The notes below the pieces were generated by a model that saw nothing but the letters and a program-made list of their open reading frames with translations, did no database searches and was not told the origin of the DNA. A program made the translations under genes and the position numbers. Below are positions 10,388 to 48,308 of a stretch of 64,000 nucleotides of DNA, in pieces (the stretch's first letter is position 1; each line of letters opens with the position of its first letter). The DNA is taken from NCBI GenBank assembly GCA_964520655.1, contig CAZFNI010000007.1, positions 6,398 through 70,397 on the forward strand. Reading direction: 5' to 3'. This DNA comes from an uncultured Planctomycetales bacterium (GTDB lineage: Bacteria; Omnitrophota; Gorgyraeia; Zapsychrales; Fredricksoniimonadaceae).

Positions 10388-12743
10388 GAATTTAGTCACC
10401 GTCGGTGTCATTTCGTTTTCGGCCATCTTGTTCCAGATATGCGTCACGCGCATTCTGGCGGTGACCCTGTGGTATCATTTTGCTTTTCTGGTGATCTCGC
10501 TTTCGATGCTGGGGATGACGGCAGCCGCGATCGCCTGTTTTGTTTTTTGGCCGCGTGTCATAGAAACACAAAGCCGGCGGTATTTTATTATTTTTGCAGC
10601 CCTGTTCGCCTTGCTTGCGCCATTATCCGTTGCTGTTCATTTAAATATCAATTTTCAGGAAGTGGCGTTCAACACGGCCGGATTTTATGCGATCGCGATG
10701 CTCCAGCTGGTGTTTTTGGCGGCGGCGTTCTTCGCCGCAGGGATGGCGTTAAATATCATTTTGTTCAAAGAACAGGAACGGATCGGATTTGTCTATTTCT
10801 GTGATCTGATCGGCGCCGCGGCGGCAAGCCTTCTGGTCATGGCGCTGTTATATTGGGTCAGCCCTATCGCTGTTGTGTTTCTCATTTCATTTTTGTCCTT
10901 ATGGGCAGCCTATGTGCAGGCATCGCATCAGGGCTTACGCCTGGCGCTGCTTTTATCAGCGGGAGTGATGCTGGTATTATTCATCAACAATGACGCGTGG
11001 CATATCTTTAAGATCAGGGCCGTGAAAAGTTATGGGGAGAAAGCGTTCCAGGTGGAGGACAAACCTCTTTTGTTCGAGAAATGGTCGCCGTTCGCGCGTA
11101 CGACGGTGTACAGCCCGACCCGCCATGACAGCGGGACATTATCCATTGAGAATAATTCCGGCGCACCGGCGGCAATGTTCAAATATGACCCGATGCTTCC
11201 GCCAACCCAGCTGAGGACCAGGCTTTACGGTCTTCAGGAAATGGCTTTTGTCCTCAAGAAGAGCGATGAAGCCTTGATCATCGGCTCAGGCGGAGGGAGG
11301 AATTTGCTGGCAGCGTTGCTCTCGGGTCAGGGCCATATCACGGCGGTTGAGGTCAATCCGGTGACTGCGGAGATCGTTACAAAGGATTTTTCGGATTATA
11401 TCGGCCGCATCTTTGAGGATTCCCGCGTTACTTTTCATGTGCAGGAGGGGAGGAATTTCATTGCCCGTACCCAACAGTTGTACGATGTGATCAATATCTC
11501 CATGGTTGAGAGCTGGGGGAATCAGGCCGCGGCCAGCAATTCGTATATTTTTACCGAGAACACCTTGTACACCAGAGAAGCGGTCTGGGATTATGTGCGT
11601 CATTTAAACCCGCAGGGGATACTGAGCATCACCCGGTATGATGATTTTGATGAAGGCTTGCGTTTAGTGAACACGATGATCGACACGCTGCAGGAGAGAG
11701 GGGAAAAAGACCTTAAGGACCAGTTCGTCGTTGTGTTGGGCTACAAGTATCGGGGATCGGTGGGGCTAGCCAATGTCATGTACAAACGCGGCGGATTCAC
11801 CAGGGAAGATGTGGCCAGGATCAGGGATTTTACATCCCGTAACGGTTTTAAGATCATTTACGCGCCGTTCTTGCCGGAGGCAGCAATGAGCGCGCTTCCC
11901 CGGTCGGAATTTTACCGCAAGCTTATCCTCGGGAAAGACAGGAGGGATGATCTGGTGGCGCGGTATCCCCGGATCATCAGCCCATCCACGGACGACAAAC
12001 CATTTTTTTTCTACATGGACCGATTTAAGGATTCATTTGTGTTCAATGCCAATGAACATGCGGCCCGAAGACGCGCTATCCCGATATTGTATGGATTGTG
12101 TGCGGGGGTAGCGGTGCTTAGCCTGATCATGGTCTTTCTGCCGTTGTTAGTTTACCGCCGTACACGTTTAAGCACGCTGTTGCAATGCCGGGTGAATTTG
12201 CTTTATTTTGCAGCGCTGGGAACGGGGTTTATGTTCATTGAGTTATCCCTGATACAGCGACTGACTGTTTTTCTGGGGCATCCCATTTACGCCTTGATCG
12301 TGGTGTTGACCGCCTTGCTGTTAAGCAGCGCTATGGGGAGCTTCTTCTCAGGAAGGATCAAGCCTCTAATGAAAGAGAAGGTGCTTAAGGTTGTGCTGCT
12401 GGCGATCGCCCTCTGTGGCGTTCTTGTGGGGGGAATTATGTTCGATCACCTGGCGCGCTGGATGTATTTACAGCAGCCGCTGCGTGTCATCGTTGCTGTC
12501 GCGACCATCGTTCCTTTGGGGGCTATGCTGGGGATGTGTTTCCCGCTGGGTGTTCATTTGCTGCAGGAGAAGGACAGGCAGCTGATCGTATGGGCGTGGG
12601 GTATCAACGGGATATTTTCTGTCTTAGGATCGGTGCTGGCCATGGTGCTGGCACTGCATATGGGATTTAAAGCCGTGTTCTTGATCGGAGCGGCATGTTA
12701 TTGCGGGGCATGGTTGGCGGTCAAACGCATGGGGAATCAATGA
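10380..12743 (+). CDS. Spermidine-synthase-like (class I SAM/dcSAM-binding fold) domain flanked by two multi-span membrane domains (787 aa)
   Basis: The central domain LIIGSGGGRNLLAALLSGQGHITAVEVNPVTAEIV...RVTFHVQEGRNFIARTQQLYDVINISMVESW resembles the SpeE-type aminopropyltransferase core. Hydrophobic segments lie on both sides (about 200 aa at the N-terminus and about 220 aa at the C-terminus). Overlaps the upstream gene by 8 nt. Confidence 0.65.
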   Translation: MNRNLVTVGVISFSAILFQICVTRILAVTLWYHFAFLVISLSMLGMTAAAIACFVFWPRVIETQSRRYFIIFAALFALLAPLSVAVHLNINFQEVAFNTAGFYAIAMLQLVFLAAAFFAAGMALNIILFKEQERIGFVYFCDLIGAAAASLLVMALLYWVSPIAVVFLISFLSLWAAYVQASHQGLRLALLLSAGVMLVLFINNDAWHIFKIRAVKSYGEKAFQVEDKPLLFEKWSPFARTTVYSPTRHDSGTLSIENNSGAPAAMFKYDPMLPPTQLRTRLYGLQEMAFVLKKSDEALIIGSGGGRNLLAALLSGQGHITAVEVNPVTAEIVTKDFSDYIGRIFEDSRVTFHVQEGRNFIARTQQLYDVINISMVESWGNQAAASNSYIFTENTLYTREAVWDYVRHLNPQGILSITRYDDFDEGLRLVNTMIDTLQERGEKDLKDQFVVVLGYKYRGSVGLANVMYKRGGFTREDVARIRDFTSRNGFKIIYAPFLPEAAMSALPRSEFYRKLILGKDRRDDLVARYPRIISPSTDDKPFFFYMDRFKDSFVFNANEHAARRRAIPILYGLCAGVAVLSLIMVFLPLLVYRRTRLSTLLQCRVNLLYFAALGTGFMFIELSLIQRLTVFLGHPIYALIVVLTALLLSSAMGSFFSGRIKPLMKEKVLKVVLLAIALCGVLVGGIMFDHLARWMYLQQPLRVIVAVATIVPLGAMLGMCFPLGVHLLQEKDRQLIVWAWGINGIFSVLGSVLAMVLALHMGFKAVFLIGAACYCGAWLAVKRMGNQ

Positions 12744-14566
12744 GATTAAACATGGCAAAGATCGACAGACGAGTTGTGCAAGATGTCATTGTGCTGATGA
12801 TCGTCATGATGTATTTCATCGCAAGGACATGGGGGAAATGGGCCCACCCGATCACGGATTTCGGACGGGAATTGTATATCCCTTGGCGCTTAAGCGAAGG
12901 GCAAATATTATACAGGGACATTGCCTATTTGTTTGGTGCATTTCCCCCCTATTGGAACGCGCTGATGTTCAAGCTGTTCTCCCCGTCGCTGGCCATGTTG
13001 ATAACGATCGACCTTGTGGCGGCTTGTTTATACACAGCATTGATCTACCGCTTTTTATATGTCACAACCAACCGGTCAACAGCATTCATGGGAAGTTTGG
13101 GTTTCATGATGGTGTTCGTCTGTAATTTTATGGGGTATAACATGTATTATCTAACCCCCTATTCTCACAGCAATTTTTATGCCGTTCTCTTTTCTTTGGC
13201 CGCAATGAACCTGTTCCATCTTCTTTCGCAACACTTTAAAAAAAGGATGGTATTCGCGATCGGCCTGTTATTAGGCGGGGTGCTCTTATCACGTCTAGAG
13301 ATATTCCTGACGATCATTATCCCTGTTATTGTTGGTATAGCGATGTTGGTGGATCGACGCGGCAGCAAGGCAGTGATCGCACGGAGTTATGCTGTATTTC
13401 TTTTAGGGCTTGTGATCCCCGTTATCTGTGCATGGGGTTATTTCTTGCAGTATTTCCCAGCGGCACAGGCGCTGCAGAACATCGTGGGATATAATCCCCA
13501 TTGGCAGAAAATATCGGGTGTCTATTTGTACGCAAAACAATATCTCGGCTGGGAAAGGAATGCCTCTCTAACGGCAAAGGCAATAGCCGCGGGCTTTATA
13601 TTTTATGGAGCCATTGATCTGTTGTGCCGGGGTATTCGCGGGGGTCTTGACAATAAAGGGGCATATCGGTTTGCGGGGATGATCTTGCCGGGTTTTTGTA
13701 TGTATGCCTTGATCGTTTATCTGTGTGTGACGCCTTATGTGTACGATTCTTTTCGGGGAGCGGCCATGGCGGCTGTCGTGCTGGCTGCAGCTCTTTTCCG
13801 TCGACTGAAAGGTGTTCCGTCCTTGCCGCAGAGTATTCCAGGTCTGATACCGCTGCTGGTGTGTTGTTTCTGGGCAGTCTTGATGTTGTTCAAGGTGCCG
13901 CTGATGATCACCTTCCGGGGATACGGGCTGGTCTATGGGCTGCCGGCATTTCTGATGGGGGTGGTCCTTTTTGTGTATTTTGTCCCACAGCAGATGCAGC
14001 GGAAATATGGTCAGGGACAGTTGTCGCGGCGACTGGTATCCGCGTTGCTGCTGTTGATATGCGTGATGATATATTCTTCTTCATTCAAAAATTTGTCATC
14101 GAGGAACAAGGCTGTTGGTTCTGGGAATAATATTGTTGTTTATCTGGACAAGAAGTCCTCTTACGGACTGGCGGAAGATATTGAGCGTTTTCTCCTCTGG
14201 GCCAAGGATCATTTGGGCCCCAGGGACACGTATGTTGTTCTTCCTGAGGGAGTAATGCTCAATTTTTTCACCAGGCATGCGATCACCGGTCCGCATGTCA
14301 GCTTTATGCCCGCGGAAATGGCCACGTATGGGCAAGAAGAACTGTTATTGTCGTTAGAACGTGATCCGCCGGACTATGTGCTCATTGTCCACAAAGATAA
14401 TCGCGTGTATCCCGGGATGATATTGGGTAGAAATTATGCGGTAAGCATTGTAGACTGGGTCAAAAGAAATTACCGTTCTGTCTGGGATTCGCGCGAGAAT
14501 AAAAAACGTTTTGTCGGGATCGAAGTGTTTCAACGCGAGGGGATAAATGATCAAGATCTTTATTAG
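12740..14566 (+). CDS. Family A4: polytopic membrane protein, ArnT/PMT (GT-C)-like
   Basis: The track ORF opens at 12695 inside the upstream gene. ATG 12740 gives an ATGA stop/start overlap, and its N-terminus (MRLNMAKIDRRVVQD..) is colinear with A1-A3. Motifs: WAHPITDFGRELYIPWRLSEGQILYRDIAYLFGAFPPYWNALMFKLF and the C-terminal YVVLPEGVMLNFFTRHAITGPHVSFMPAEMATYG...PPDYVLIV. Confidence 0.6.
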   Translation: MRLNMAKIDRRVVQDVIVLMIVMMYFIARTWGKWAHPITDFGRELYIPWRLSEGQILYRDIAYLFGAFPPYWNALMFKLFSPSLAMLITIDLVAACLYTALIYRFLYVTTNRSTAFMGSLGFMMVFVCNFMGYNMYYLTPYSHSNFYAVLFSLAAMNLFHLLSQHFKKRMVFAIGLLLGGVLLSRLEIFLTIIIPVIVGIAMLVDRRGSKAVIARSYAVFLLGLVIPVICAWGYFLQYFPAAQALQNIVGYNPHWQKISGVYLYAKQYLGWERNASLTAKAIAAGFIFYGAIDLLCRGIRGGLDNKGAYRFAGMILPGFCMYALIVYLCVTPYVYDSFRGAAMAAVVLAAALFRRLKGVPSLPQSIPGLIPLLVCCFWAVLMLFKVPLMITFRGYGLVYGLPAFLMGVVLFVYFVPQQMQRKYGQGQLSRRLVSALLLLICVMIYSSSFKNLSSRNKAVGSGNNIVVYLDKKSSYGLAEDIERFLLWAKDHLGPRDTYVVLPEGVMLNFFTRHAITGPHVSFMPAEMATYGQEELLLSLERDPPDYVLIVHKDNRVYPGMILGRNYAVSIVDWVKRNYRSVWDSRENKKRFVGIEVFQREGINDQDLY

Positions 14567-16529
14567 GAGCATGTTTATCGCGTTGATCGCCGCATGTTTG
14601 ATCGGCATGTCCGACCTGATATTCATTTCTGTTTCCCCTAAAGCGTTTATCAGTTTCAGGAATATCACTGTTCTGGCCGGAGTTCCGGTCCTGGCGATGA
14701 ACTGGCTGCTGGTCTTTTTCGCAACGTTCATCCTTGTGTTCGTATGTTCTTGGCTGGGAGGCTATGTTGTCGCCGGGATCTTTTCTTTATGGACGATCTT
14801 TTATTTGATCAGTTGGGGGACATATTTAGTCGTTGGTGAGTTTCTTGGTTTCGAGGGGATCCGGTTTGTTTGGTATAACCTCAATGATATCCTCTGGATG
14901 ATGGGACAGATCTCTGCCTGGTATTGGGTGGCTTTGACCGTCCTGGTACTAACGCCGGTCGCTGGTTTTCTTTTGACCAACAGGTTTAGTCATTATTTCA
15001 AGAAGATCATCACCGCTCTTGAAGTGAGGCAAAGAGTAGTTGCTGGGATCGGTGTTCTGGTTTTATGCACGTTGATGGCGATCGCGTTTATTCTTTTTGC
15101 GTCGTTGACCCCCAAACAGAAAGCTGACTTAAGATTACGTGTTTCTCCCCAGGCGACATTGTTCTGGGACCGTCCGCAAAAAGAGATCCTTTTGGGACGC
15201 GCGCATGATCAAGAGCACTTAAGAACACATTACTCCCAGGTTATTGGATGGGAGGATTATCAGAAGATGCAGGTCAAGACCGTCAAGCCTGTTCCTGTGA
15301 TCGTCATAGTCATTGAGTCCATGTGCTGGGACGTTTTGAACAATGCGCAGGTGATGCCCAACACGTACGCTTTAAAACAGGATGGAGTGTATTTACGCGC
15401 GTATACGACCAGCAATCAATCCGATTATGCGTGGCCCGCGATATTCTCGTCACAATATCCCCTGCGGACCAGATATCATTATTATTATCCCAGAGAAAGC
15501 CGCTTCCCGCGCGTTACCATCTATGACGTATTAAAGCAACAGGGATTCGACACGGCTATCTATTCTGCCCAGAATGAGACCTGGGGGGGAATGTTCAATT
15601 ATTTGAATACCGGGTCTTTAGACATGTTCTATTATTCCGATGCCTCTCATGGGGAGGATTATATGTCCCACGAAGATTCCGGGTTCGCTGCCTATACGAA
15701 AAAGTTCAGATCCCCGGGGAAGATCGATGATGGAGTGGTGGTCGATGAGGCCATATCGTGGATCAAAGGAAGGCATCAGGATAAGTTCTTTCTTGGTCTT
15801 AATTTTCAGCGTTCGCATTTCCCCTATACCTGGCCCGACTCATTCCATCCCCCTGATCCGGGAGTAAAGCCAAGCGGCTGGGGATATTCACGCACTCTGG
15901 TCAAGGGTGTAAAGGCCAGGTATTTCAGTGCGTTGCGTTATACGGATGAACAGATCGGACGTTTTATTAATTTCTTAAAAGAGCAGGGGATCTATGAAAA
16001 GAGCATTATTGTATTGATGGGCGACCACGGAGAGGCCTTTTATGAACATGCTTCTCCGATCCATGGGAATGAACTCTTCAATGAAACTGCTTTGACCGGG
16101 TTGTTGATCAAGGGATCAAACGAGCGCATAACCGTCAAAAATTATAAGAATCCGGAACTTCTGGATGTTGCTCCGACGCTATCTTCAATGTTGGGATTGA
16201 CGATACATCCGGCTTTTCAGGGGGAATCACTAGTGGCCCCGTCTTCTTTTTCAAAACCAGTCTTCATCACGGTGCAGTCGGCTATCGCTAAACAGGATGC
16301 GATCGTCGCGGGCGGGTGGAAATTGATCCGGGATCTGCGTAATAACAGGACATCTCTTTTTGATCTTCGACGTGATCCTGGGGAAAGCAAGAATGTTTAT
16401 CAATCCAATCAGGTTCAAGGGCTGAAACTGTTGCTCCAGTTGCTGTATTGGCGCAAGAAGCAGTTAGAGTATTATTCAACACCGGACATGGCAAAAAAAT
16501 ATTATGCCCCCAAGTACTCGTCCCCATAA
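14547..16529 (+). CDS. LtaS-like / sulfatase-family (alkaline-phosphatase superfamily) transferase with an N-terminal multi-span membrane domain
   Basis: 660 aa. About 200 aa of hydrophobic N-terminus are followed by PVIVIVIESMCWDVL..., ...LNFQRSHFPY..., IIVLMGDHGEAFYEH..PIHGNELFNE and LDVAPT. These are typical of membrane-anchored sulfatase-fold phosphoglycerol or phosphoethanolamine transferases. Confidence 0.7.
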   Translation: MIKIFIRSMFIALIAACLIGMSDLIFISVSPKAFISFRNITVLAGVPVLAMNWLLVFFATFILVFVCSWLGGYVVAGIFSLWTIFYLISWGTYLVVGEFLGFEGIRFVWYNLNDILWMMGQISAWYWVALTVLVLTPVAGFLLTNRFSHYFKKIITALEVRQRVVAGIGVLVLCTLMAIAFILFASLTPKQKADLRLRVSPQATLFWDRPQKEILLGRAHDQEHLRTHYSQVIGWEDYQKMQVKTVKPVPVIVIVIESMCWDVLNNAQVMPNTYALKQDGVYLRAYTTSNQSDYAWPAIFSSQYPLRTRYHYYYPRESRFPRVTIYDVLKQQGFDTAIYSAQNETWGGMFNYLNTGSLDMFYYSDASHGEDYMSHEDSGFAAYTKKFRSPGKIDDGVVVDEAISWIKGRHQDKFFLGLNFQRSHFPYTWPDSFHPPDPGVKPSGWGYSRTLVKGVKARYFSALRYTDEQIGRFINFLKEQGIYEKSIIVLMGDHGEAFYEHASPIHGNELFNETALTGLLIKGSNERITVKNYKNPELLDVAPTLSSMLGLTIHPAFQGESLVAPSSFSKPVFITVQSAIAKQDAIVAGGWKLIRDLRNNRTSLFDLRRDPGESKNVYQSNQVQGLKLLLQLLYWRKKQLEYYSTPDMAKKYYAPKYSSP

Positions 16530-17505: not shown

Positions 17506-17506
17506 T

Positions 17507-19570
17507 TTGGCTGATATGCGCAATGTCATCAAATTCGGTTGGCCGCTTGTTCTGTGGATGATCCTTTGCCGGGATCTCATCTGTGGAGCCATTCCATTTA
17601 ACATGGACACCAATACCATTTACGGGGTGGCCAAATTTTATTTTAATAATGTTTTTAACGGCGTTGTCCCCTTGTGGGACCCGTTCGTCAGTCTGGGCCA
17701 TCCGTTCTATGCCTTGTCGATCTGCAATTTGTTCAATCCCGTAACGCTGTTGATGCCGCTCTTGAAGCTGTGCGGCTTGTCGTACAATATCGCCTTCGCT
17801 TTGTATATGACCGCGTATTTCTGGGTCGGGGGCATGGGATTCTATTTTCTATTAAAGAGGCTCCTCAACGATAAAAGCTTGGCCTATCTCGGCTACGTGG
17901 CGCTGTTATTCTCCAGCTTTGGTCTTAGCATGTTCACCCAGTTCACATTCCTGGAGATCGTCGTCCCGGCCATTTGGTTCTTTTATTTCCTGGCCGCGTA
18001 TTTCGATCGGCAAACCAGGGGGCATTTGCTTGGTCTGACATGCGCATTGATGGCCGCGCTTTCGTCCTATTTGCCGTTTTATTTTCTAACGGTGCTGTTC
18101 GTGTTCATTGCCGCCGTTATTGTATTGTACCCCAAAGAAACATGGAGCTACTGCATCCGCTCATTCGCATTCAAATTCCAGCATTGGCCGTTGACTTTTC
18201 TTTGTGCGGCAGGCATTGTCTGTGCCGCCGGACCACTGTTGGCCTATAAAATGCTCGATGCTTCAGGCGACGCTGTCTCTCCCGGACGGCACTGTCAATA
18301 TTCGTCCATCGAGGAGTGTTATAACCGCACCATCAATCATCAGGGCGGCATGCTCTATGAAGAGATCGCCCGCAGCGGCGGACTTGGGGAACGTTTGGAT
18401 ATTGGGTATTTATTCACCCATTTGGATAAGTTGACCTATGGCAGTGATTCGCTTTTCTTCGTTCCGGTATTGATCTATATTCTGATTGTTTTATCCATTG
18501 GTTTGAAATGCAGCCGTTTTAATGTGCTGTTAGTCGCCATGATGACCGGCATCGGCCTGATCGGGCTTGGCAGCGCTTGCGGTCTGCACCGTTTTTTATA
18601 CGACCACGTTTTCTTCTTTAAATATTTCCGAAATTTATTCTTCCTGGGGGCATTCTTAATTCCGCTTGCGATCATCTTCGCGCTTAGGCAGTTGAAAGAA
18701 CTGTTGTTATATAAACCGGCAGATGCCAGCCGTAAAAAGTTCGCTATTGTCGCCATTGTGGCAACCCACGCCGGCATGGCGGCGTATTTATGGCATTTAG
18801 GCGGCATTATCCCGTCGATATGGATCACGTTGGTGTTGAGCGCGGCGATGTTCTCTCTGTACTATGCGGGCGGATGGGTCTGGCCGCTTCGATACTGGAT
18901 GTGGGGGATGGTTCTGCTCATGCTCATTGAGCCCTTGGCGCTCATGCATGCCTATGCGCAAAACGCCGTGGAATTCCGCTGCGTATTGCCTAATGCCCAT
19001 GTGGTCCCGCGATTTTCCTGGGTGCGTCCGGATAAGCCGGCCACCAGCGCCTGCCGCATCTATCAATTTGTCCCCTATGAAGACTTCTGGTATGCCATGA
19101 GCATGACCGACGCCCCGGCGGTGGTGGGATACCCACAGGCCGCGGCGCGCTATGTGTTCATGCTCTCCAAACAATTAGGGGACGTGCCGTTATCACAATA
19201 TGCGAAATATAAAGTGTACCTGTTCGATGACCTGACCTCGTCGGGTCAGGTCATCGACGGCACACAGCCGTCGGTGCGTATCGTGCATTTTGACGTCAAC
19301 CGCGTTGTGTTCGATGTCGATCTGCCCAAGAGAAAGCAGCTGGTCTATAATGACGCTTATACCCAGCAATGGCGCGTTCTTGTCGACGGTCGGCATCAGG
19401 AACTTGTGCGGGCCAGTGGCGCCTTCAAAGGGGTTTGGGTAGAGCAGGGGCGTCACCGGGTGGAGTTCTCCTATCACCCGCCCGGGGGACAATGGGTCTA
19501 TCTGTTAACGACGGCGGTCCTTTTGGTATTTTTCATTATTACTGGGATAATGCTATGGAAAAAAATATGA
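17507..19570 (+). CDS. Family B1: YfhO-like polytopic membrane protein (shorter member, 687 aa)
   Basis: TTG 17507 or ATG 17516 could be the start. N-terminal FNGVVPLWDPFVSLGHPFYAL is followed by many hydrophobic spans. The C-terminal domain YNDAYTQQWRVLVDGRHQELVRASGAFKGVWVEQGRHRVEFSYHPPG is followed by a final TM helix, which is the arrangement I associate with YfhO-family proteins. Confidence 0.55.
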   Translation: MADMRNVIKFGWPLVLWMILCRDLICGAIPFNMDTNTIYGVAKFYFNNVFNGVVPLWDPFVSLGHPFYALSICNLFNPVTLLMPLLKLCGLSYNIAFALYMTAYFWVGGMGFYFLLKRLLNDKSLAYLGYVALLFSSFGLSMFTQFTFLEIVVPAIWFFYFLAAYFDRQTRGHLLGLTCALMAALSSYLPFYFLTVLFVFIAAVIVLYPKETWSYCIRSFAFKFQHWPLTFLCAAGIVCAAGPLLAYKMLDASGDAVSPGRHCQYSSIEECYNRTINHQGGMLYEEIARSGGLGERLDIGYLFTHLDKLTYGSDSLFFVPVLIYILIVLSIGLKCSRFNVLLVAMMTGIGLIGLGSACGLHRFLYDHVFFFKYFRNLFFLGAFLIPLAIIFALRQLKELLLYKPADASRKKFAIVAIVATHAGMAAYLWHLGGIIPSIWITLVLSAAMFSLYYAGGWVWPLRYWMWGMVLLMLIEPLALMHAYAQNAVEFRCVLPNAHVVPRFSWVRPDKPATSACRIYQFVPYEDFWYAMSMTDAPAVVGYPQAAARYVFMLSKQLGDVPLSQYAKYKVYLFDDLTSSGQVIDGTQPSVRIVHFDVNRVVFDVDLPKRKQLVYNDAYTQQWRVLVDGRHQELVRASGAFKGVWVEQGRHRVEFSYHPPGGQWVYLLTTAVLLVFFIITGIMLWKKI

Positions 19571-19788: not shown

Positions 19789-19805
19789 GCCATCGCGAAA
19801 GAGTG

Positions 19806-19835
19806 TTGCCATGGCCTTGTGTTGTCTGCTAGTAT
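19806..19835 (+). promoter_or_regulatory. Candidate sigma70-type internal promoter (TTGCCA, 18-nt spacer, TAGTAT)
   Basis: It lies in the largest gap of the array (19789-19867) and is read directly from the sequence. No experimental support. Confidence 0.3.
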
Positions 19836-19867
19836 GGGGGCCTGTAATTACCCACTAAAGATATATC

Positions 19868-23196: not shown

Positions 23197-23203
23197 AGAA
23201 AAA

Positions 23204-27340: not shown

Positions 27341-27410
27341 CCATAACGGAATAGGTGAATTTTCTGTTAAATCATGATATTCTGACGTCATTGCATTGAA
27401 AGAACGCGCG

Positions 27411-27752
27411 ATGGAAAAGATCATTCTGGGAATAGTCCAAACGATATTGTGCCCGCAATTCGCGGCTGATGCTAACCATCATCACGTGACGCATACGGCG
27501 GAAGTGCTTTACCGCAAGATCATGGCCATGCCGTTGTTGCTGCGTCTGGCCATGTCCGTGCTGTTATATGTTTTTAACGGATACGGGGTTTTGCTGGGCG
27601 GACATTTGTTTGAGAACCATGTCCCCCAAAACAAAGCTAAACAGTTAAGCCAATGGCAGAACAGCCCGATCGCCCCTTGCCGTGAAGCAATGTCTTTTTT
27701 TTATAAAATGACTTTTTTTATTTATTTCTCCTTATGCCCAAAGATCGATTAA
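27411..27752 (+). CDS. Small hypothetical membrane-associated protein (113 aa)
   Basis: The ORF is open from TTG 27396, with ATG at 27411. It has a hydrophobic core (PLLLRLAMSVLLYVFNGYGVLLGG) and overlaps the following GMC oxidoreductase gene by 19 nt. I recognise no motif. Confidence 0.4.
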   Translation: MEKIILGIVQTILCPQFAADANHHHVTHTAEVLYRKIMAMPLLLRLAMSVLLYVFNGYGVLLGGHLFENHVPQNKAKQLSQWQNSPIAPCREAMSFFYKMTFFIYFSLCPKID

Positions 27753-39902: not shown

Positions 39903-42372
39903 TCCCGGGCAAAAGAACTCACAGACATTATTGTTGATCGCCGCGATCGTGCTGGCCGGCATGGAGCTGGCATTGATCACGGGCGCGCTGTTGTCTTTTG
40001 TCCCGATCGACCAGCGGGCATTATTGGCGGATGTTTTTGCCAAAGATGTGCACATCATCAAAAAAGACTGGAAGATGCTTGTCTATCATGGCGTGATCGC
40101 GGCCATCGCGTTTTTGGGGTGGCTGGCCCTGACCCGGTTTAAGCAATATTGTTTTGAGCAGGACAAGCGGCGGGAATTGGCTCTGTTGTGCAAAAGCAGC
40201 GCGGCCTGGATCACGCTGATGGTCTACGCATTATTTTTTGTGATCAATGATCCTCGTCCCACATGGGCCTGGCAGACCTTCGGCCTGGCCGCGATCGGCG
40301 CCGTGTTAACGAAATTATTCTTTCCTGAATTAAATAATTTATTCCAGGGTCCAGCTGTTTTTAAAAAAGCGGCGATATTTGGCGGCTTTCTTTTTACCGG
40401 AGTTTTTGTTCTGTATAACGGAGGCGCTCGGGCGGCTGGGACATTGGCCTTGTGGTCCGTATTCCTAGGCGGGGCCATTGGCGCGGGATGGTTATTAGGC
40501 CGAACGGATCTAAGTCCAATTGCCAGGAAGTTGACGCGGCTTTCCCCGTTGGCGGATGTGTTGATATGGCTTTGCAGCAAAAGTGTTCTGGCCAACACTG
40601 CTTTTGCCGCAGGCGGTATTTTCCTTGTGTCGCTTTTGGCTATCGTCGACCCTGTCGCAGTCCTGGCACAGACGGCCTTTGGCGAGCACTATTACCATTT
40701 TGACCTGATGCTCATGGCCGGTGCCTATGCGTTTGGCAGCGGCAACACGCTGGGCGTCGATCAGATCGCGTATTACGGCATTGGTCTGCCTGCTTTAGTC
40801 GGGGGTTTGTCCAAAGCATTCTTTGGGCAGGTCACTTATGAGGGTGTCTTTGCCATCTATTGGGGATTGACGATCGTTTATTACGCGGCTTTCTATGCCG
40901 TCATGCGCTACTGGCTTGGCAGCGTTCTGTTAGCATTTGCCGCCGTGATGCTCGCGGTCAAATGGCAGGTTTTTTATTCCTTGTCTTATCCGGTCTCTGC
41001 CATTTATCCCAATAGCTCTCCACTGCGCTGTTTTTTAGACATTCCGACATTTATATTGCTGTGGATGTTCATCAAAAGCGGGAAGACAAGATACCTGTGG
41101 TCTGCCGCTGCCCTGACAGGAGTGGCAATGGTTTTCATGCCAACGACTGGCGTCGATCTGTATCTGGCCCTGGTGGCATTCGCGGGGATGTTTTTTATTC
41201 TTCGAAAGATCCAAAAGATAACGATCGATCGCCTTCGCGTTGCCACGGCGCTGCTGATCCCGTTGGCCTGTGCATTGATCGGATTCTTCTTTCTGTGCGG
41301 CAAGGCCGTGTTCGCTGGCCAATTCTGGAAAGACCTGATGTTCTATCCGCATTTGTTCACCAACGGGTTTTATGACATCTGGTTCTGGGATAATTTAATG
41401 CACGGCCATTATGTCGATTTTGCCGTCGGCGTGCTTTTTCCGGTCCTGTATCTATTCACGATGCTGTGGATAGGGTTTCGTTTGTACCGCCGGGAGGGAT
41501 CGCTTGAGGAAATGATCACCTTTGCCGTTTGCGCATATGGCTTAAGTCTGTATCATCACTACCTGGTGTTGTCGCTGCAGAATAATTATTTCATGCGCGC
41601 GGTCGTTTTTATCTGGGTGATCTTCTATTGGGTCAAAGGCGCGATGAATGCGTGTTCATCATCAAAGGCCAGGGCGCTGTGGGCGTGGGGTTTAGCTGCT
41701 GGATGCTTGTTCTTCCTGTTAACCGATAAGCTTTATCAGGCGTTCCCGAATTATTGGAATTCATTGAACGTGCGTAATCCCATCGTCGATAAACGCACTG
41801 CCCGGGGTTTACCTGAGGACGGGCGGCCTTACTTTTTCCATCAAGAGGCGTGGACCGCAGAAAAAGATAAGCTCGCGGCAAATTCTGTGGGAACAACACA
41901 GGAGCGTATCTTTTTTGAATGGCAGGTGCCTGACCATGAAACGTTAAAAGCGCTTTATGCCCAGGAGTTTGATTTTAAGGAGGATGTGGCCCTGATCAGG
42001 GCCTTGACCACGCCGTCAGAAAAGACCGCGCTGCTCTCAAGCTTCGAGATCGAGATATTGCGTCAGGCCGGGCGCCGTCCGTACTTTTTTTATTTCCCTG
42101 TCATTTCTTCGCGCGGCATGGATGTGCGCACCTTCCCGCACACCAACATTTACACCAAGGGCATGCAGGCGCGGATGATCCAGGAGATCGAGAGCTCAAT
42201 GCCGGAATATATTTTTATGGAACGGATATTTTTAAGCGATGCGCTTCCGGCTTCCTACGCGGTCGACCACGAGGAGCTCTTGGGTGTCATCGCGCATATC
42301 CGCAAACATTATCAACCCTTCGCCCAGGGCAAGTACTTGACGGCCATGAAGAGGGTCCATGTCCAGGATTAA
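39895..42372 (+). CDS. Family C3: uncharacterised large polytopic membrane protein (825 aa, longest member)
   Basis: 8-nt overlap with the upstream gene. Motifs: QTAFGEHYYHFDLMLMAG....GVDQIAYYGIGLP and AVKWQVFYSL. The C-terminus is TALLSSFEIEILRQAGRRPYFFYFPV....MPEYIFMERI....HYQPFAQGKYLTAMKR. Confidence 0.6.
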   Translation: MGNPGQKNSQTLLLIAAIVLAGMELALITGALLSFVPIDQRALLADVFAKDVHIIKKDWKMLVYHGVIAAIAFLGWLALTRFKQYCFEQDKRRELALLCKSSAAWITLMVYALFFVINDPRPTWAWQTFGLAAIGAVLTKLFFPELNNLFQGPAVFKKAAIFGGFLFTGVFVLYNGGARAAGTLALWSVFLGGAIGAGWLLGRTDLSPIARKLTRLSPLADVLIWLCSKSVLANTAFAAGGIFLVSLLAIVDPVAVLAQTAFGEHYYHFDLMLMAGAYAFGSGNTLGVDQIAYYGIGLPALVGGLSKAFFGQVTYEGVFAIYWGLTIVYYAAFYAVMRYWLGSVLLAFAAVMLAVKWQVFYSLSYPVSAIYPNSSPLRCFLDIPTFILLWMFIKSGKTRYLWSAAALTGVAMVFMPTTGVDLYLALVAFAGMFFILRKIQKITIDRLRVATALLIPLACALIGFFFLCGKAVFAGQFWKDLMFYPHLFTNGFYDIWFWDNLMHGHYVDFAVGVLFPVLYLFTMLWIGFRLYRREGSLEEMITFAVCAYGLSLYHHYLVLSLQNNYFMRAVVFIWVIFYWVKGAMNACSSSKARALWAWGLAAGCLFFLLTDKLYQAFPNYWNSLNVRNPIVDKRTARGLPEDGRPYFFHQEAWTAEKDKLAANSVGTTQERIFFEWQVPDHETLKALYAQEFDFKEDVALIRALTTPSEKTALLSSFEIEILRQAGRRPYFFYFPVISSRGMDVRTFPHTNIYTKGMQARMIQEIESSMPEYIFMERIFLSDALPASYAVDHEELLGVIAHIRKHYQPFAQGKYLTAMKRVHVQD

Positions 42373-44860
42373 AACCATCACATGGGGACCGGCGCAATGG
42401 ATGTTCGCCTGTATTATGGGGGCTTTTGTTCTTTTGGCGCTATTCTTCCCGACGCTGTTGATCACGCGGAAAGTCAGTTTCATCTACATGCAGGACTATC
42501 TCAATGATTACAAAGCTGTCCATCTGCTTATTCAATTCTTTTATCAGAAAGGCATACAGCTGTGGGATTTTTTCAGCCAGATGCCGCACACCTATTTCTT
42601 TGCGACATTCGGGACATTCAAGGTCGCCAATTTATTGACCGCTTTGGCCTATGTAGGCACATCAGGCTTCTTTTATGATCAAGCCAAATTGCTGCACGAT
42701 GTCTTCGCCTGGGTCTATGTTCCGGCGCTGCTGACCTTAAGGGCGTGCGGCATGGTGATCGTTTTGAGGCTGCTTGGATTTGGCAAAGTTTTCGCGGCGG
42801 CCTTTGGGCTGGCTGGTGCATTATTGTGGGCAAAGCCGGCGATCGTGATCGGCACGTTCTATCAAAGCTATACACCATTGATCATGCTGCTTATTTTGGC
42901 GTGGGTGACATTTCAACAGGGCCGTTATCTGCTGCTCTTGGCATTGATGCTGGCGCACGCCTTCACGCAAGGCATGGTGCATGCGTGCTATTTGTATTTA
43001 GGGATACACGGGTTGCTATTGTCGGCAGTCATCTATCAGTGTTTCCTTGGGAAGAAGGAGGCGTGGCGATTTTCATTCAAAGAAGCGGCGATCGCGATCG
43101 TTCTGATCGGTTTGATGCTCTGGCCGTACGCGGCCATGATCAAATTATCTTTTGCTGACATCATGTTCGCGCCGGGGGAGAGCCGGCTTAATGGATTTTT
43201 CGATCTGAAGTATTATTTCAATGCCATGAAGATCGACCAGGTGCGCGTGGGGACATTTGTCGCAGACAGCCTGAGGTTCGATGATATCAGCGGGATCAAA
43301 TATTTCTTTGGTCTTGGTTTCTTCTGGTGCGCGCTCACCGGATGGGTCATGGCGGCGGACAGGCGTAAATGGATCTTTGCCGGCGGTCTGATATTGTTAT
43401 GGGCTGTCAACACGCCGCGTTTCGGGTTTAACCCGGGGATGATCGGCCATTGGATCAATGTGCTGACCAATCCCATGAGCACCATGGTCCGTTCCTATGA
43501 AATGGCTGCCTGCGCGGCCGTGGGCTATATGCTCCTGCCGTTGTGCGCCTGGGGGATGATCTGGTTGTGGGAACACGACGGAGTGAAGGTCAGTGCGTAT
43601 AAAATGAAAATATGGTGGCTGTTGACGGCATGTCTGCTGGCGTTAGCGTTTGGGATCAATGTGCCGGTTCAGGTGCGTTTATATACGATCATTCTGAGCG
43701 TATTGATCGCGGGAGCGCTTTGGATCAAGACATACACGATGTTTAAAGTCGGCCGTAAAAAATATTCTGGCTGGTCATTCAGGGGATTGCTGATCATCAT
43801 GATCGCGTTAGACGCGTTCTTGAGCATCGTGCAGATCAACCGGTTCTTTGCCGCGGGAGAGGTCGCAACACCGCCGCTGGCGGGATCGGCAAGACATTAT
43901 GGTCTTAACCTTGATCATCAAAACCCGAGAGTGATGGGCTTTCCCTATAATGCGGATATGATCGATACAGGCGCGACGTCGCATGTGTGGAGTTTGCGGG
44001 ATATCTCGCCGGGCTACAGCCGTGTGATCAACCGCTTTATCGCTTTTGAAAAGCCAGGTGACCATTTCCCCCGTCATCAGGCTTATGCGGGATGGTATCA
44101 GAATGAACGCGTGATGGAATATGTTAAGCGTTATCCGGCATTGGCTTATTTTGTCCCGTCAGATGGAAAAAATGAGGCGTTGATCATCTCAGGGGAGCGG
44201 CCGGGAGATCTTGGCGGGCAATTTGTACAAGAGAGCCTGTTGCAAAGTCCGATCGTGGTAAATTCACAGGCCCATGGTTATTGGAGCATGTCATTTGCGC
44301 TTAGCGATCCATTTGCCCATATTGTAAGCAATCAAGTGTCCGCGTTCCCGGCGGCCAGAGTTTTTGTTGAGACAGATGGCCAACAGCATGAATTGGAAGC
44401 CTCCCAGGGACGATTATTGGGGTCTGGGATGTTTGATATCAATAATATCTATCAGGGCAAGATGCTGGTATCATTGCCCAGAGGAGTTTTGCCACAGGCG
44501 GTTAAGGTGCATGTATGGCGCTACCAGCAGGAGACTGGGATCGTCGGAGTTGATTCCTTCACACATGACCGTTTGAGCGCGGCATTCGCCGCGCCGCACA
44601 ATGGATGGGCGGTATGGCACATCCCGTATGATACGAAATTTGTGATCATGGAAGATGGACGCAAGGTCGATTACAGACGCACGACTGCCGGCTTTATCCG
44701 CTGGCCGATCAAAGCCGGACGGCACAAGGTGGTGATCGATTATTGGCCACAGGGCTGGTGGCTGAGATGGGGGCTTGTGTGCTCGACGGTGGTGTCCATG
44801 GGGTGTTTGGTGTACATCCTTAACCTGTTATGGGTAAGATCGTTCCGATATGAAAAATAA
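42359..44860 (+). CDS. Family B5: YfhO-like polytopic membrane protein (833 aa, most divergent member)
   Basis: Motifs: YQKGIQLWDFFSQMPHTYFFATFG and GHWINVLTNPMSTMVRSYEMAAC. The C-terminus is PYDTKFVIMEDGRKVDYRRTTAGFIRWPIKAGRHKVVIDYWP followed by a terminal TM helix. 14-nt overlap with the upstream gene. Confidence 0.55.
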   Translation: MSRIKTITWGPAQWMFACIMGAFVLLALFFPTLLITRKVSFIYMQDYLNDYKAVHLLIQFFYQKGIQLWDFFSQMPHTYFFATFGTFKVANLLTALAYVGTSGFFYDQAKLLHDVFAWVYVPALLTLRACGMVIVLRLLGFGKVFAAAFGLAGALLWAKPAIVIGTFYQSYTPLIMLLILAWVTFQQGRYLLLLALMLAHAFTQGMVHACYLYLGIHGLLLSAVIYQCFLGKKEAWRFSFKEAAIAIVLIGLMLWPYAAMIKLSFADIMFAPGESRLNGFFDLKYYFNAMKIDQVRVGTFVADSLRFDDISGIKYFFGLGFFWCALTGWVMAADRRKWIFAGGLILLWAVNTPRFGFNPGMIGHWINVLTNPMSTMVRSYEMAACAAVGYMLLPLCAWGMIWLWEHDGVKVSAYKMKIWWLLTACLLALAFGINVPVQVRLYTIILSVLIAGALWIKTYTMFKVGRKKYSGWSFRGLLIIMIALDAFLSIVQINRFFAAGEVATPPLAGSARHYGLNLDHQNPRVMGFPYNADMIDTGATSHVWSLRDISPGYSRVINRFIAFEKPGDHFPRHQAYAGWYQNERVMEYVKRYPALAYFVPSDGKNEALIISGERPGDLGGQFVQESLLQSPIVVNSQAHGYWSMSFALSDPFAHIVSNQVSAFPAARVFVETDGQQHELEASQGRLLGSGMFDINNIYQGKMLVSLPRGVLPQAVKVHVWRYQQETGIVGVDSFTHDRLSAAFAAPHNGWAVWHIPYDTKFVIMEDGRKVDYRRTTAGFIRWPIKAGRHKVVIDYWPQGWWLRWGLVCSTVVSMGCLVYILNLLWVRSFRYEK

Positions 44861-45323
44861 ATCTTTTGATGTCTTTGATCCGGTCTTTACCGGTTTATTA
44901 GCTGCCGCGGCGATCCTGTGCGCGATGGAAATGCTCATTATCGCCGGTGTTGTTTTGTTCTATATCCCCTTTACGCCTGACCCATCCCTGCAGGATATAT
45001 TCTTCCATTACCGCAAAGGATATGTTCCCGAGCAGGAATTATTATTGTACGGCGTTGGGATCGCGATGGCGGTGGTCTTCTTTGTCGGCGCTGCGATCGT
45101 TTTTGCGCGGCGCGTTTCGGATGTTTTGTTTCAAAGGTCATTGATACGTTATGCGGTGGTGCATACGGCCGTTGTGATTTCGATGACGGCATGTGTTTTT
45201 AAATTGATCGTCACACCGTCGGATGGCATCGCGTGGGCATGTCTTTATACAATGTTGGGCGTTTCTTTGGGACTTAACATATTTTGGAGCGAGATCGATC
45301 AATGGTTTGGGCGGACCTTTTAG
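44850..45323 (+). CDS. Family C4, N-terminal fragment (157 aa) of a split or frameshifted gene
   Basis: It aligns with the first ~150 aa of other family C proteins (..IPFTPDPSLQDIFFHYRKGYVPEQELLLYGVGIAMAVVFF.. and ..NIFWSEI..). It ends at TAG 45321-45323, exactly where the paralogs continue. Confidence 0.5.
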   Translation: MKNKSFDVFDPVFTGLLAAAAILCAMEMLIIAGVVLFYIPFTPDPSLQDIFFHYRKGYVPEQELLLYGVGIAMAVVFFVGAAIVFARRVSDVLFQRSLIRYAVVHTAVVISMTACVFKLIVTPSDGIAWACLYTMLGVSLGLNIFWSEIDQWFGRTF

Positions 45324-47068
45324 CGGTTCTCGGGATCTTTCTGGTGCTGTTCATCCCTGACCCGTCGTCGACGGTGGCGCAGCTGTTCTTGGGCGACTAT
45401 TTCCATGACTGGGATGTGGTCTTCATGGGGCCGGTCTACGGATTGTTCTGCGATCTTGTTCCCAACATCGATGTCAATACGACCTATGGGTTTGGATTAA
45501 GTCTGCTCATCAAGTGGGGGATGCAGCTTTTGGGCGGATTTGATTATACGCATGCGCTTGTCGTATTAGTCTGGCTGGGAATTATTTATTTTGTCGCCTG
45601 GTATTTTTTGCTGCGCCGGCTGTTTGAGCATCGGCTGCTGGCCTTTATCGCCATTTTGCTTGGCATGCGTTTTCAGATGTTTGTTTCGATCCTGATCCCC
45701 ATCGTCTGGAACGATATCCAATGCTCAGTGCTGCGTTTTTATTTTGACGCGGCCTTTTTCTGGAGTTTATACCTGCATCAGAACAAAGGTGGTCAGCGTT
45801 ATCTTTGGCTCATGGGGTTATCTGCGGCGCTGGGGATCTTCCATATGCCGACCATGGGGATATTTTTAGCGATGACCATGGTCGTTTATCTGGCCTTCTT
45901 GACCCTTGATGGATATTTTAAGGAAGGGATGAAATCCTTGGGCTCAGCGGCCTCCAATGCCCGGCCTTTGATCTTTATCCCGGTCGTCGTCTTCATCTTG
46001 TATTATGCCATTGTTAGGGACCATATTTTCACCGGAACATTCTGGGCCAACACCGCCGGATTCGCGTCCTATTTTGCTAAAGGATTTTTCTATAGCCCGA
46101 TGCTTGACCCGCTTAAACGGGGCAATTATCTGATGGTCATCGGCGGGATCTTGATCCCGCTGTGGTATCTGTTCTGCCTGTTCTTTTTCGGCTGGCGCTA
46201 TCTTACCCCTGCCAGAAGATCCAGGGATATATGGATCGTTCTGCTGTCCGTGTATGGTCTGGGGATATTCACGTATTTTGTCGGGATGTCCCATAAATAT
46301 TCGACGGTGTCTCTGCCGGCGACATTTGTTTCCTTTCTTGTCCTTGATGAGATCTTGGCCCGCGCCTCGCGGCACTGGAAATTCCGGATCACGTGGACTT
46401 TGCTTGCGGTGAGTATTTATGCTCTTGCGGTCGAGCCTATGTTCAAGGCCTACCCCAACTGGCTTAATATTTCCCGCGATCCGGTCGTTGACGAGCGCGT
46501 GACCATGAAAACTCCCAATGGAAAACCGTATTTTCAGCAGCTGGCCATCGATTTCCCAGAGTGGATCAAGGTCCCCTTCAATTCGCTGGGGGAGACGGAT
46601 GAGAAGTTCAAATATGAGAAAGATTTCGTCAACAGCGACGCGTTAAAGTCCTATTACCGTCTGGAGACCGCGTTTGTCGAGGACGCGGGCTTGATCCGTC
46701 GTTTGACCAGCCCCGGCGACAGGGTGGCCTTATTATCCAGTTTTGAGGTGATGATCCTTTCTAAAGCACAGCGTAAACCACTGTTCTATTATTTCCCATT
46801 GCTTAATTCCCATCCCATGCGCATGCGAAATTTCGTGGTCACGACCATATTTAGCTACCCGCAATTGCGCCAGAGCATTGACCAGTTAAACGCGGCCATG
46901 CCGCCCTATATTTTTATGGAGAAGGTGTTCTTGACGGAGCAGGTCCACCCCTGGTATTTTGAACAATTCGAGGATTTGATCGCGCTGATCCGCTGGATCA
47001 AATATTATTATACGCCGGTCGAACAGGGCAAATACTTGGTGGCCATGAAAAGGAAGACCGATGGTTGA
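45302..47068 (+). CDS. Family C4, remainder (about 588 aa) of a split or frameshifted gene
   Basis: A different frame is open from 45284, with ATG at 45302 (MVWADLLAVLGIFLVLFIPDP..). It carries the loop motif QLFLGDYFHDWDVVFMGP....DVNTTYGFGL, then GMRFQMF. The C-terminus is VALLSSFEVMILSKAQRKPLFYYFPL....MPPYIFMEKV....YYTPVEQGKYLVAMKR. Confidence 0.55.
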   Translation: MVWADLLAVLGIFLVLFIPDPSSTVAQLFLGDYFHDWDVVFMGPVYGLFCDLVPNIDVNTTYGFGLSLLIKWGMQLLGGFDYTHALVVLVWLGIIYFVAWYFLLRRLFEHRLLAFIAILLGMRFQMFVSILIPIVWNDIQCSVLRFYFDAAFFWSLYLHQNKGGQRYLWLMGLSAALGIFHMPTMGIFLAMTMVVYLAFLTLDGYFKEGMKSLGSAASNARPLIFIPVVVFILYYAIVRDHIFTGTFWANTAGFASYFAKGFFYSPMLDPLKRGNYLMVIGGILIPLWYLFCLFFFGWRYLTPARRSRDIWIVLLSVYGLGIFTYFVGMSHKYSTVSLPATFVSFLVLDEILARASRHWKFRITWTLLAVSIYALAVEPMFKAYPNWLNISRDPVVDERVTMKTPNGKPYFQQLAIDFPEWIKVPFNSLGETDEKFKYEKDFVNSDALKSYYRLETAFVEDAGLIRRLTSPGDRVALLSSFEVMILSKAQRKPLFYYFPLLNSHPMRMRNFVVTTIFSYPQLRQSIDQLNAAMPPYIFMEKVFLTEQVHPWYFEQFEDLIALIRWIKYYYTPVEQGKYLVAMKRKTDG

Positions 47069-48308
47069 ACGAAAGATCATCAGCATCATTACAGCCTTGG
47101 TACTCGTCGAGTCCTTGCAGGCGCTTGCGTTGATCGCGCATATTTATAGTTTTATCCCCATCTCCCTCAAAGGCCCGATCCTGCCAGGGCTTGAGCCGGA
47201 AAGGGAGAGTTTTCTCTACATCATTTTCCTGGCCATGGTTTTTGTGCTGACGATCGTGCTGACGGCGCTGTTATATAAGCCGCTTAAGTCCGCTGCTTTT
47301 CAACAGAGAGCATTGAAGTTCGTATATTTGGAAACGCTCTGGATGGGACTGATGCTGTTTGCCTTCTTTAAATGGGTAAGCTACCAGCATCCTTTCTATA
47401 ATATTCTGCCGCTGGAGAACGGACGATGGGTATATCCGTTCTTTTACGCAGTTGCCTTTTTAAGCTTTTTGACAAAGATATTCTGGGCGGAGATCGTCAG
47501 GTTTTGGGAGAGCTGGGAACAGGGGCGGGGCCGCAGACTGGTGACAAAAGAAAAACCATTGGCTGTTTATGCCGCCGGGATAATGTTTGCGGCCGCATTG
47601 TTGTACCCCAATGTGCCGCTTGCCTCGCAGGTCATTGCCTCCTGGAGCCGTTTTGCGCCATGGCAGAATTTCTGGCTGACGCGTTTTTTTCTTGAACGGG
47701 GATTCTCTCCTGAGGCGATCATTGCGTGTTTATACGGTCTTAATATGATCGTCCTGGGCGTGATCTTTGTCGGAGCGCATCGCTACTTGAAGAATTCCTG
47801 GCTGGCCTTTGGTGTCCTCATGCTGACGATCCAAATGACGTTTTTCCATTACGGCACATCACCGGTGTGCTGGAATGCTCCGCAGAATACGCTCATCAAT
47901 TTCGGCTGGGACTTTGGCTTTATGAAAGACGCCGCGCATTTGCCCATGTTCGCTGCCTTGCGTGTGCGCCAGTTTCTTTCATTCTTTATGGGATATGCCA
48001 TCGCGGTGTTGTATGTCTTCTCTATATTATATTGCTGGGGCAAAGATAGAATGGCGGTGATCTTAAGTGGCCTTGGCTTACTCTTATATACCCGCTATAT
48101 CGCCCATGCCGATGTATTTGCTTTTGGGGCGGCATCCTTCCCGGCAATGATCTTGTCTGCGCACTGGTTGAGAATTGTAATAAGGCGATTTTTTCCCAAA
48201 CAGGAAAATGCTGTTTATATCGCGCTTGCCGCAACGTCAGTTTTCATGCTGTTAACCAACCGGGTATTTGTGACCTACCCGCATTTTTGGATGAACAATG
48301 TTCCATAA
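47061..48308 (+). CDS. Family C5: truncated or degenerate member (415 aa) with the membrane domain only
   Basis: The N-terminus is colinear with family C (..FIPISLKGPILPGLEPERESFLYIIFLAMVFVL.., ..KIFWAEI.., ..TIQMTFFHYGTSPVCW..). It lacks the (E/D)Q.HH.D loop segment. It stops at ..FVTYPHFWMNNVP, which is where the C-terminal soluble domain begins in the paralogs. Confidence 0.5.
   Translation: MVERKIISIITALVLVESLQALALIAHIYSFIPISLKGPILPGLEPERESFLYIIFLAMVFVLTIVLTALLYKPLKSAAFQQRALKFVYLETLWMGLMLFAFFKWVSYQHPFYNILPLENGRWVYPFFYAVAFLSFLTKIFWAEIVRFWESWEQGRGRRLVTKEKPLAVYAAGIMFAAALLYPNVPLASQVIASWSRFAPWQNFWLTRFFLERGFSPEAIIACLYGLNMIVLGVIFVGAHRYLKNSWLAFGVLMLTIQMTFFHYGTSPVCWNAPQNTLINFGWDFGFMKDAAHLPMFAALRVRQFLSFFMGYAIAVLYVFSILYCWGKDRMAVILSGLGLLLYTRYIAHADVFAFGAASFPAMILSAHWLRIVIRRFFPKQENAVYIALAATSVFMLLTNRVFVTYPHFWMNNVP

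Follow-up and report, generated by a model that had tools for sequence, protein, structure and literature searches.

This study found that, in a 64,000-nucleotide (nt) stretch of DNA from an uncultured bacterium placed by GTDB in the Omnitrophota (assembly GCA_964520655.1, contig CAZFNI010000007.1, forward-strand positions 6,398 to 70,397; hereafter the window, numbered from its first letter), a probable operon encoding about 15 membrane glycosyltransferases of the GT-C fold, in three families (A, PMT_2-like; B, YfhO; C, new), is joined together by an unusually dense series of stop/start overlaps. We propose, at a probability of roughly 60%, that these overlaps represent operon compaction with facultative translational coupling, but not a need for fixed subunit ratios. 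Stop/start overlaps are a well-known phenomenon, and their suggestion of coupling is textbook operon biology that serves here chiefly as a sanity check on the gene models; what is new is so dense an instance in a glycosyltransferase operon. In the window's list of open reading frames (ORFs), the + strand carries every large ORF from 533 to 50847, in one co-directional block whose largest internal gap is at most 79 nt. The region of ~4.9-50.4 kb is presumably one long co-directional, polycistronic envelope-glycan operon, so that ~29 genes over 45 kb, including the GT-C glycosyltransferases, would almost certainly form one expression unit.

Close relatives of the encoded proteins occur in Candidatus Omnitrophota metagenome-assembled genomes. 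The comparison covered loci L001 and L025 of the nearest relative (GCA_041910255.1, 97% amino-acid identity), L002 and L005 of a syntenic second species (CAZNDZ010000001, orthologs 45-77% identical), L004, L018 and L024 of a third species (OTE_78_metabat_191), and L030 of a syntenic sister lineage (JGI 3300027815 Ga0209726_10000012, 247831-270428); other L numbers denote further loci. With the best-supported starts, 17 of the 24 same-strand junctions from 10380 to 48298 (71%) overlap and one more has a zero gap, and in the sub-block 27734-48298 the overlaps amount to 11 of 12 junctions, the twelfth being the zero gap. Among non-array junctions pooled from the Omnitrophota loci the share is 13/53 (25%; Fisher p = 2.8e-4, odds ratio 7.5), and the published share of overlapping co-directional pairs has group means of ~15% and reaches ~30% (PMC6728339). 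The enrichment is real but moderate. By length, half of the array junctions (12/24) fall within -8 to +10 nt, and eight more are longer overlaps of -11 to -26.

On re-reading the sequence, we found every junction that the sequence-only reading had listed: the array's ATGA overlaps at 12740, 19567, 29062, 31113 and 38499, the ATGA overlaps outside the array at 53003 and 63577, the GTGA overlap at 60405, and the remaining overlaps and the zero gap described below. The start codon at 33688 is GTG, not ATG, and two overlaps were added, of 26 nt at 16504 and of 22 nt at 45302. At 19567 and 27734 one partner is a small ORF, of 73 and 118 amino acids (aa), respectively; both are real conserved genes, with 70% and 44-68% amino-acid identity in other species.

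All array junctions lie on the + strand. In its 5′ part, an 8-nt overlap (10380-10387) leads from the third family-A gene, A3, to a spermidine-synthase-like membrane protein, its start being called alike in the 97% strain (L025), and an ATGA overlap (12740-12743), with GGGGA at -10 to -6, leads from that protein to A4; here an alternative ATG at 12752 (spacing +8) matches the paralog N-termini. The following two starts are ambiguous, namely the 20-nt overlap from A4 to a sulfatase-fold membrane enzyme (14547-14566), where the gene caller on L025 preferred ATG 14571, giving a +4 gap, and the corresponding A-to-sulfatase pair of L027 is spaced by +9, and the 26-nt overlap from the sulfatase-fold enzyme to a 333-aa SGNH-like protein (16504-16529). 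An ATGA overlap (19567-19570) joins the YfhO-like gene B0 to the 73-aa protein, with TTGA at the homologous site of L024, where the protein is 70% identical, and a 7-nt overlap, ATGCTGA (20713-20719), the same in L024, joins an FkbM methyltransferase gene to a family-B gene.

The denser 3′ part begins with a 19-nt overlap from the conserved 118-aa protein to a GMC oxidoreductase (27734-27752), which is 19 nt in four species and where a later start would delete the GxGxxG motif for binding flavin adenine dinucleotide (FAD). The oxidoreductase start is preceded by a T-rich stretch without a Shine-Dalgarno (SD) motif, and after the pair formed by the 118-aa protein and the oxidoreductase (27396-29065) a family-C gene always comes next, via ATGA. 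This ATGA overlap to C1 (29062-29065), likewise without an SD motif, is kept in L005, L004, L009 and L032. The ATGA from C1 to B1 (31113-31116) is kept in L005, L004 and L032, and the N-terminal 'RDIG' of B1 is preserved via synonymous changes. B1 and C2 overlap by 14 nt (33688-33701), as in L005 (14 nt) and, at 11 nt, in L004 and L032, all of which preserve the GTG start and an upstream GGGAAGG motif. C2 and B2 meet in the zero gap TAG-ATG (35902-35907, B2 starting at 35905), where the spacing is -1 in L005 and L032, 0 in L031 and +12 in L004. B2 is followed through ATGA (38499-38502; 8 nt in L005) by a gene for a GT2-remnant/methyltransferase protein, and the latter through 8 nt (39895-39902; 4 nt in L005, -1 in L032) by C3. 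C3 and B3 overlap by 14 nt (42359-42372), the frame of B3 opening 3 codons upstream, and B3 and C4N by 11 nt (44850-44860); L005 is without B3, and its C3-to-C4N junction is ATGA. A 22-nt overlap (45302-45323) lies between C4N and C4C, the halves of a split family-C gene, and overlaps of 8 nt from C4C to C5 (47061-47068; 8 nt in L005) and of 11 nt from C5 to C6 (48298-48308; 8 nt in L005) close the series. The conserved C-terminal peptide of family C, ...AMKR/FKR, is encoded by AAAAGGAAG or AAGAGG, which doubles as the SD-like element of the next gene; such an element lies inside the family-C 3′ end at 31095-31116, 35885-35907, 42340-42372 and 47040-47068.

The overlapping starts appear to be the ones actually used at 12 junctions, for which four features of the sites speak indirectly. 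First, in other species or loci (the second and third species, L009 and L032, at 45-77% amino-acid identity) these 12 junctions likewise have a start at the homologous codon, the ATGA between the GMC oxidoreductase and C1 occurring in five species and that between C1 and B1 in four, whereas downstream alternatives lack such conservation: where the 97% strain has M18 of the 48298 gene annotated as the start, L005 has a non-start codon. Second, at eight junctions of the 3′ block (31113, 35905, 39895, 42359, 44850, 45302, 47061 and 48298) the frame opens 0-8 codons before the chosen start, which is therefore not a long upstream extension. Third, SD-like tetramers at -18 to -5 are enriched before overlap starts (10 of 18, as against 18% of random positions; p = 4e-4) and are present at 10 of 20 non-overlap starts. 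Fourth, the region -20 to +10 opens at 10.3 kcal/mol versus 12.9 kcal/mol at random array positions (p = 0.008). These tetramer counts and opening energies replaced anti-SD duplex energies computed with a 13-nt 16S tail, which were too noisy to rank the starts. Independent gene calls on L001, L002 and L025 match at nearly all junctions. The caveat raised at the outset, that alternative downstream starts would remove the overlaps, is unlikely to apply where the downstream candidates are not conserved, while 14547, 16504 and 12740 (versus 12752) stay ambiguous.

Termination-reinitiation coupling is experimentally supported at -8 to +10 nt, the commonest distances being -4 > -1 > -8; coupling declines steeply with distance and is less efficient at -8, and long overlaps are rare and typically uncoupled (PMC10666635). 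In a further study, native pairs at -4 or -1 were strictly coupled in 13 of 14 tests (PMC6728339). The sequence-only reading had claimed obligate coupling along the entire array, which these ranges do not bear out: coupling is plausible at the -4, -1, 0 and -8 junctions, and some is likely at the 12/24 within range, but 8 of the 17 overlaps measure 11-26 nt, and L030 spaces the same families widely. Moreover, overlap and non-overlap starts are indistinguishable in SD-like motifs and RNA accessibility, and the computed accessibility of the ribosome-binding sites gives no sign of occlusion, so that nothing suggests a need for upstream ribosomes. We propose that the operon has been compacted in this lineage to the point where the 3′ end of one gene usually contains the start codon and SD-like motif of the next. 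Terminating ribosomes probably reinitiate at the -4, -1, 0 and -7/-8 junctions, which would give coordinated, polar expression down the operon; at the 11-26 nt overlaps initiation would more likely be independent, or merely helped by upstream ribosomes. The GT-C paralogs themselves would most likely be separate linkage- or acceptor-specific enzymes using polyprenyl-phosphate sugars outside the membrane; the comparable enzymes of known systems work apart from one another for the most part.

The sister lineage provides a natural control for any function of the overlaps. Its locus L030 occupies the same chromosomal site, ends in a GT2 gene and a tRNA-binding gene and carries a B2 ortholog of 70% identity, but its spacings between the same families are +16, +49, +37, +166, +107, +68, +9 and +36 nt, and only 3 of its 11 array junctions overlap; its array also holds an added acyltransferase gene. 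Gaps of +82 and +70 nt occur in L006, and in one relative an unlabelled 733-aa gene in the size range of family C lies on the opposite strand. Composition is fluid as well. The C:B ratio is ~6:4 in the window and 7:1 in L015 (range ~1.5:1 to 7:1), so that the partner ratio is not constant across genomes; L005 has no B3, L004 and L032 have one B more, L015 reads C-C-C-C-B-C-C-C, and the gene order differs in L030 and in L031 (B-C-C-B-C-C5-C-C). Such fluidity fits enzymes of distinct specificity that come and go one by one, not obligate subunits, and these comparative data argue against obligate coupling and a fixed-stoichiometry complex as general properties of the array. The proposal that the membrane proteins assemble into complexes rather than acting as independent alternatives is thus not upheld, as copy number, order and C:B ratio vary and only C4N/C4C would be 1:1.

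Some observations nevertheless weigh against compaction with facultative coupling. The enrichment of overlaps over the immediate housekeeping flank is weak (17/24 vs 6/15, or 40%; p = 0.09). The starts at 29062, 27734 and 20713 have no SD-like motif at all and could depend on upstream ribosomes. Of the 13 C-to-B junctions seen in eight loci, 12 have spacings of ≤0 nt, a consistency that exceeds simple compaction and could mean a C-B partnership, and the GT-C heterodimers Pmt1-Pmt2 (6p2r) and EmbA-EmbB (7bvf) are among the fold matches of the array proteins. Finally, some physical association, at the least, is implied by the division of C4 and by C5 with its missing motif.

The best-surviving alternative, which we consider rather unlikely, is that the overlaps are neutral by-products of streamlining, through stop-codon loss and spacer deletion, with every cistron initiating independently. 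This evolutionary scenario has been described (PMC10666635), and it would account for the overlap among the non-array genes of the window (the 6/15 above), for the half of overlaps that are long, for start sites resembling ordinary independent ones, and for the drift of overlap lengths among species (8 to 4, 11 to 4, 11 to 8, 22 to 13, and 0 to -1 to +12, in either direction). However, the exact ATGA, 19-nt and 7-nt arrangements are kept in 2-5 species at 45-77% protein identity, the odds ratio of 7.5 over non-array junctions is hard to reconcile with it, and so is the strict coupling of native -4/-1 pairs in the tests cited above.

Somewhat less probable still is that the membrane proteins are subunits of heteromeric complexes and that the overlaps enforce an obligate coupling which fixes their stoichiometry. 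The sequence-only reading had considered dense overlaps typical of such subunits; this holds insofar as short overlaps show a 4.5- to 8-fold excess of complex subunits in E. coli and H. volcanii, but even in model organisms the share of tightly spaced pairs that code for such subunits is only 30-45%, and 55-70% do not (PMC10666635). The tight C-to-B junctions, the alternation of C and B three times in the window, the conservation of C4N/C4C and the reduced C5 together with their overlaps, and the heterodimeric precedents Pmt1-Pmt2 and EmbA-EmbB speak for subunits, whereas the spacing of the same families by +9 to +166 nt in L030, the opposite-strand 733-aa gene, the variable C:B ratio with its lost and extra B genes, the overlaps beyond the -8 nt range of efficient reinitiation, and overlap starts with SD motifs of their own that are as accessible as other starts speak against them. 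Soluble enzymes, namely the GMC oxidoreductase and methyltransferases, share the same overlaps, and in Gram-positive bacteria GT-A/GT-C pairs that are paralogs of each other function independently (PMC8035078). In a speculative extension, to which we give equally little weight, the Omnitrophota would possess heteromeric GT-C machines of YfhO-type and family-C proteins, sometimes with a non-catalytic GT-C scaffold, whose overlaps serve co-translational membrane assembly; it is suggested by the tight C-to-B junctions, the conserved fission of C4 and the conserved motif-less C5 and, if true, would amount to a bacterial equivalent of Pmt1-Pmt2 or EmbA-EmbB at a far larger scale.

Least probable by far is that the overlaps are annotation artefacts with the true starts at downstream ATG or GTG codons, since, although in three cases (14571, M18 of the 48298 gene, and C2 of L032, by +20 codons) the gene callers on close relatives preferred such a start and 12752 agrees with the paralog N-termini, it is the overlapping start and not the downstream candidate that is conserved between species, the frame opens only 0-8 codons earlier in the 3′ block, later starts would remove conserved residues or the FAD motif, and SD-like motifs are 3-fold enriched at overlap starts.

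Compaction with facultative coupling thus remains our preferred account, and the two spots at which protein-protein association is implied are the split C4 and the reduced C5. C4 consists of C4N, a 157-aa N-terminal four-helix module (44850-45323), and C4C, the remaining 588 aa (45302-47068). Three genomes share the split together with its overlap (22 nt in the window, 22 in L001 and 13 in L005) and always have both halves, and the orthologs in L006, L008 and L031 are unsplit single genes of 744-774 aa. C4N evolves faster, at 45% identity versus 74% for C4C. Programmed -1 frameshifting between the halves was considered and rejected, as the 15-45-nt joinable window contains no X_XXY_YYZ site and holds a conserved ATG. 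Lacking a slippery heptamer, C4N and C4C are most likely made separately and must then reassemble 1:1. C5 (47061-48308), of 415 aa, is a reduced family-C paralog that lacks several helices, the C-terminal soluble domain and the GExxHHxD motif of the family, and has an insertion specific to its subfamily, YNILPLENGRW. L005 conserves it, and longer counterparts occur in L006, L021 and L031. C5 may be a non-catalytic partner.

Three paralogous families were delimited by BLASTP among the large membrane proteins of the array, and their multi-pass N-terminal GT-C membrane core is supported by the resemblance of their folds to GT-C enzymes of known structure. The profiles of A, B and C found no meaningful match among PDB sequences, which made fold comparison necessary. 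Family A comprises four + strand genes of ~600 aa (4945-6756, 6761-8566, 8576-10387 and 12740-14566), which are PMT_2/ArnT-like GT-C proteins; 25 of 34 family members match PMT_2 (PF13231; best E = 3.7e-9), but among those of the window 8576 had no PMT_2 match in that scan, and 4930 and 12740 had none at E ≤ 0.01, and none of these three has a Pfam match itself. The residues D36, R39 and E40 are near-invariant. At 10380-12743 the series of family-A genes is interrupted by the gene for a polytopic membrane protein of 787 aa, whose central domain is spermidine-synthase-like. Family B comprises five YfhO-type GT-C genes on the + strand (17516-19570, 20713-23196, 31113-33701, 35905-38502 and 42359-44860). 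They score 31.6-40.2 bits against the Pfam YfhO profile (PF09586; cut-off 28.5), covering only the C-terminal 55-85 of its 835 positions, and their orthologs carry precomputed PF09586 matches; the GT-C assignment of the family comes from the fold comparison.

Family C, a new GT-C family, is encoded on the + strand at 29062-31116, 33688-35904, 39895-42372, 44850-45323 plus 45302-47068 (the split C4), 47061-48308 (the reduced C5) and 48298-50445. No Pfam, NCBIfam or PDB sequence match was found for it; the fold comparison gives a GT-C fold, and it is remotely homologous to family A, while an hhalign comparison of C with B showed no relation. The GExxHHxD motif provides its invariant H165 and D167. 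At E ≤ 1e-30 the family has 423 cluster representatives, and tandem arrays of 3-8 copies occur in many Omnitrophota (seen in the window, L005, L015, L023, L030 and L031). A literature search found no paper combining Omnitrophota with GT-C.

Interspersed between the glycosyltransferase genes are sugar-modifying genes for FAD and GMC oxidoreductases, an SDR, an AsnB-type amidotransferase, and FkbM and class-I methyltransferases, and the interspersed sulfatase-fold enzyme is LtaS/EptA-like. The protein at 38499-39902 joins a weak GT2 remnant at its N-terminus to a class-I S-adenosylmethionine methyltransferase domain and is also found within the array in L005, L030 and L032. On the opposite (-) strand, 50876-51598 encodes a GT2 that is a candidate polyprenyl-phosphate sugar synthase and could supply donors for the GT-C enzymes; its best NCBIfam models are PgfS, PpgS, ArnC-like and dolichyl-phosphate hexose transferase, all below curated cut-offs, and in L001 and L002 the match is to Pfam Glycos_transf_2. 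As a whole, the array looks like an extracytoplasmic glycan-assembly or decoration operon.

The junctions resemble the coupled overlapping gene pairs studied by Huber et al. (2019, PMC6728339; 2023, PMC10666635) and reviewed in PMC12548453, with the same co-directional ATGA/GTGA, -1, -8 and 0-nt arrangements, the same SD-like motifs in the 3′ end of the upstream gene and the same conservation across species. However, the array is denser (71%, with 11/12 in a row, against ~15-30% genome-wide), and nearly half of its overlaps, at 11-26 nt, lie beyond the well-supported range. Multi-component transmembrane glycosylation systems (PMC8035078, PMC5836110), to which the streptococcal Pgf system (PgfS, PgfM1, PgfM2) is related, combine a GT-A polyprenyl-phosphate-sugar synthase, a flippase and a GT-C of YfhO or PMT_2 type. 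The array follows the logic of these systems and likewise has YfhO- and PMT_2-type GT-C genes near a GT2 resembling PgfS and CsbB, and a GT2 to family-A pair with a 4-nt overlap occurs in the relative L027; but known systems have one to three scattered GT-A/GT-C pairs, whereas here ~15 GT-C genes accompany a single nearby GT2, no GtrA-type flippase was identified, and the host belongs to the Omnitrophota, not to Gram-positive bacteria. Mycobacterial embCAB/AftA-D, with donor epimerisation by DprE1/DprE2, is conceptually close to the operon and similarly joins tandem GT-C paralogs with FAD-oxidoreductase and SDR genes, and AftA, AftB, AftD and EmbA are among the fold matches of the array proteins; beyond the fold there is no detectable sequence relation, and families, C-terminal domains and gene number differ. 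The operon is a good candidate for heterologous reconstruction bearing on the envelopes of ultra-small uncultured bacteria, and its natural series of 4- to 26-nt overlaps, with gapped orthologous versions in a sister lineage, is useful for work on translational coupling.

Downstream of 50.5 kb the window carries housekeeping genes, including aminotransferases and a chorismate-binding-domain enzyme, which we take to be PabB-like; from the ORF translations, a GTPase in this flank is presumably Era and a further protein presumably Nth-like. A consensus scan for promoters and terminators was uninformative, the T-rich coding sequence of the membrane proteins inflating terminator-like matches. At the operon head (533-4887) lie genes for two secreted cysteine-rich proteins of 815 and 573 aa without a Pfam match, which contain tandem repeats of 141 and 93 nt ('CGGSxNTC...' and 'DCNGVCNGGAV'). 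An ORF of 815 aa also sits after the pair of GT2 and family-A genes in L027, and both proteins may be glycosylation substrates or surface proteins.

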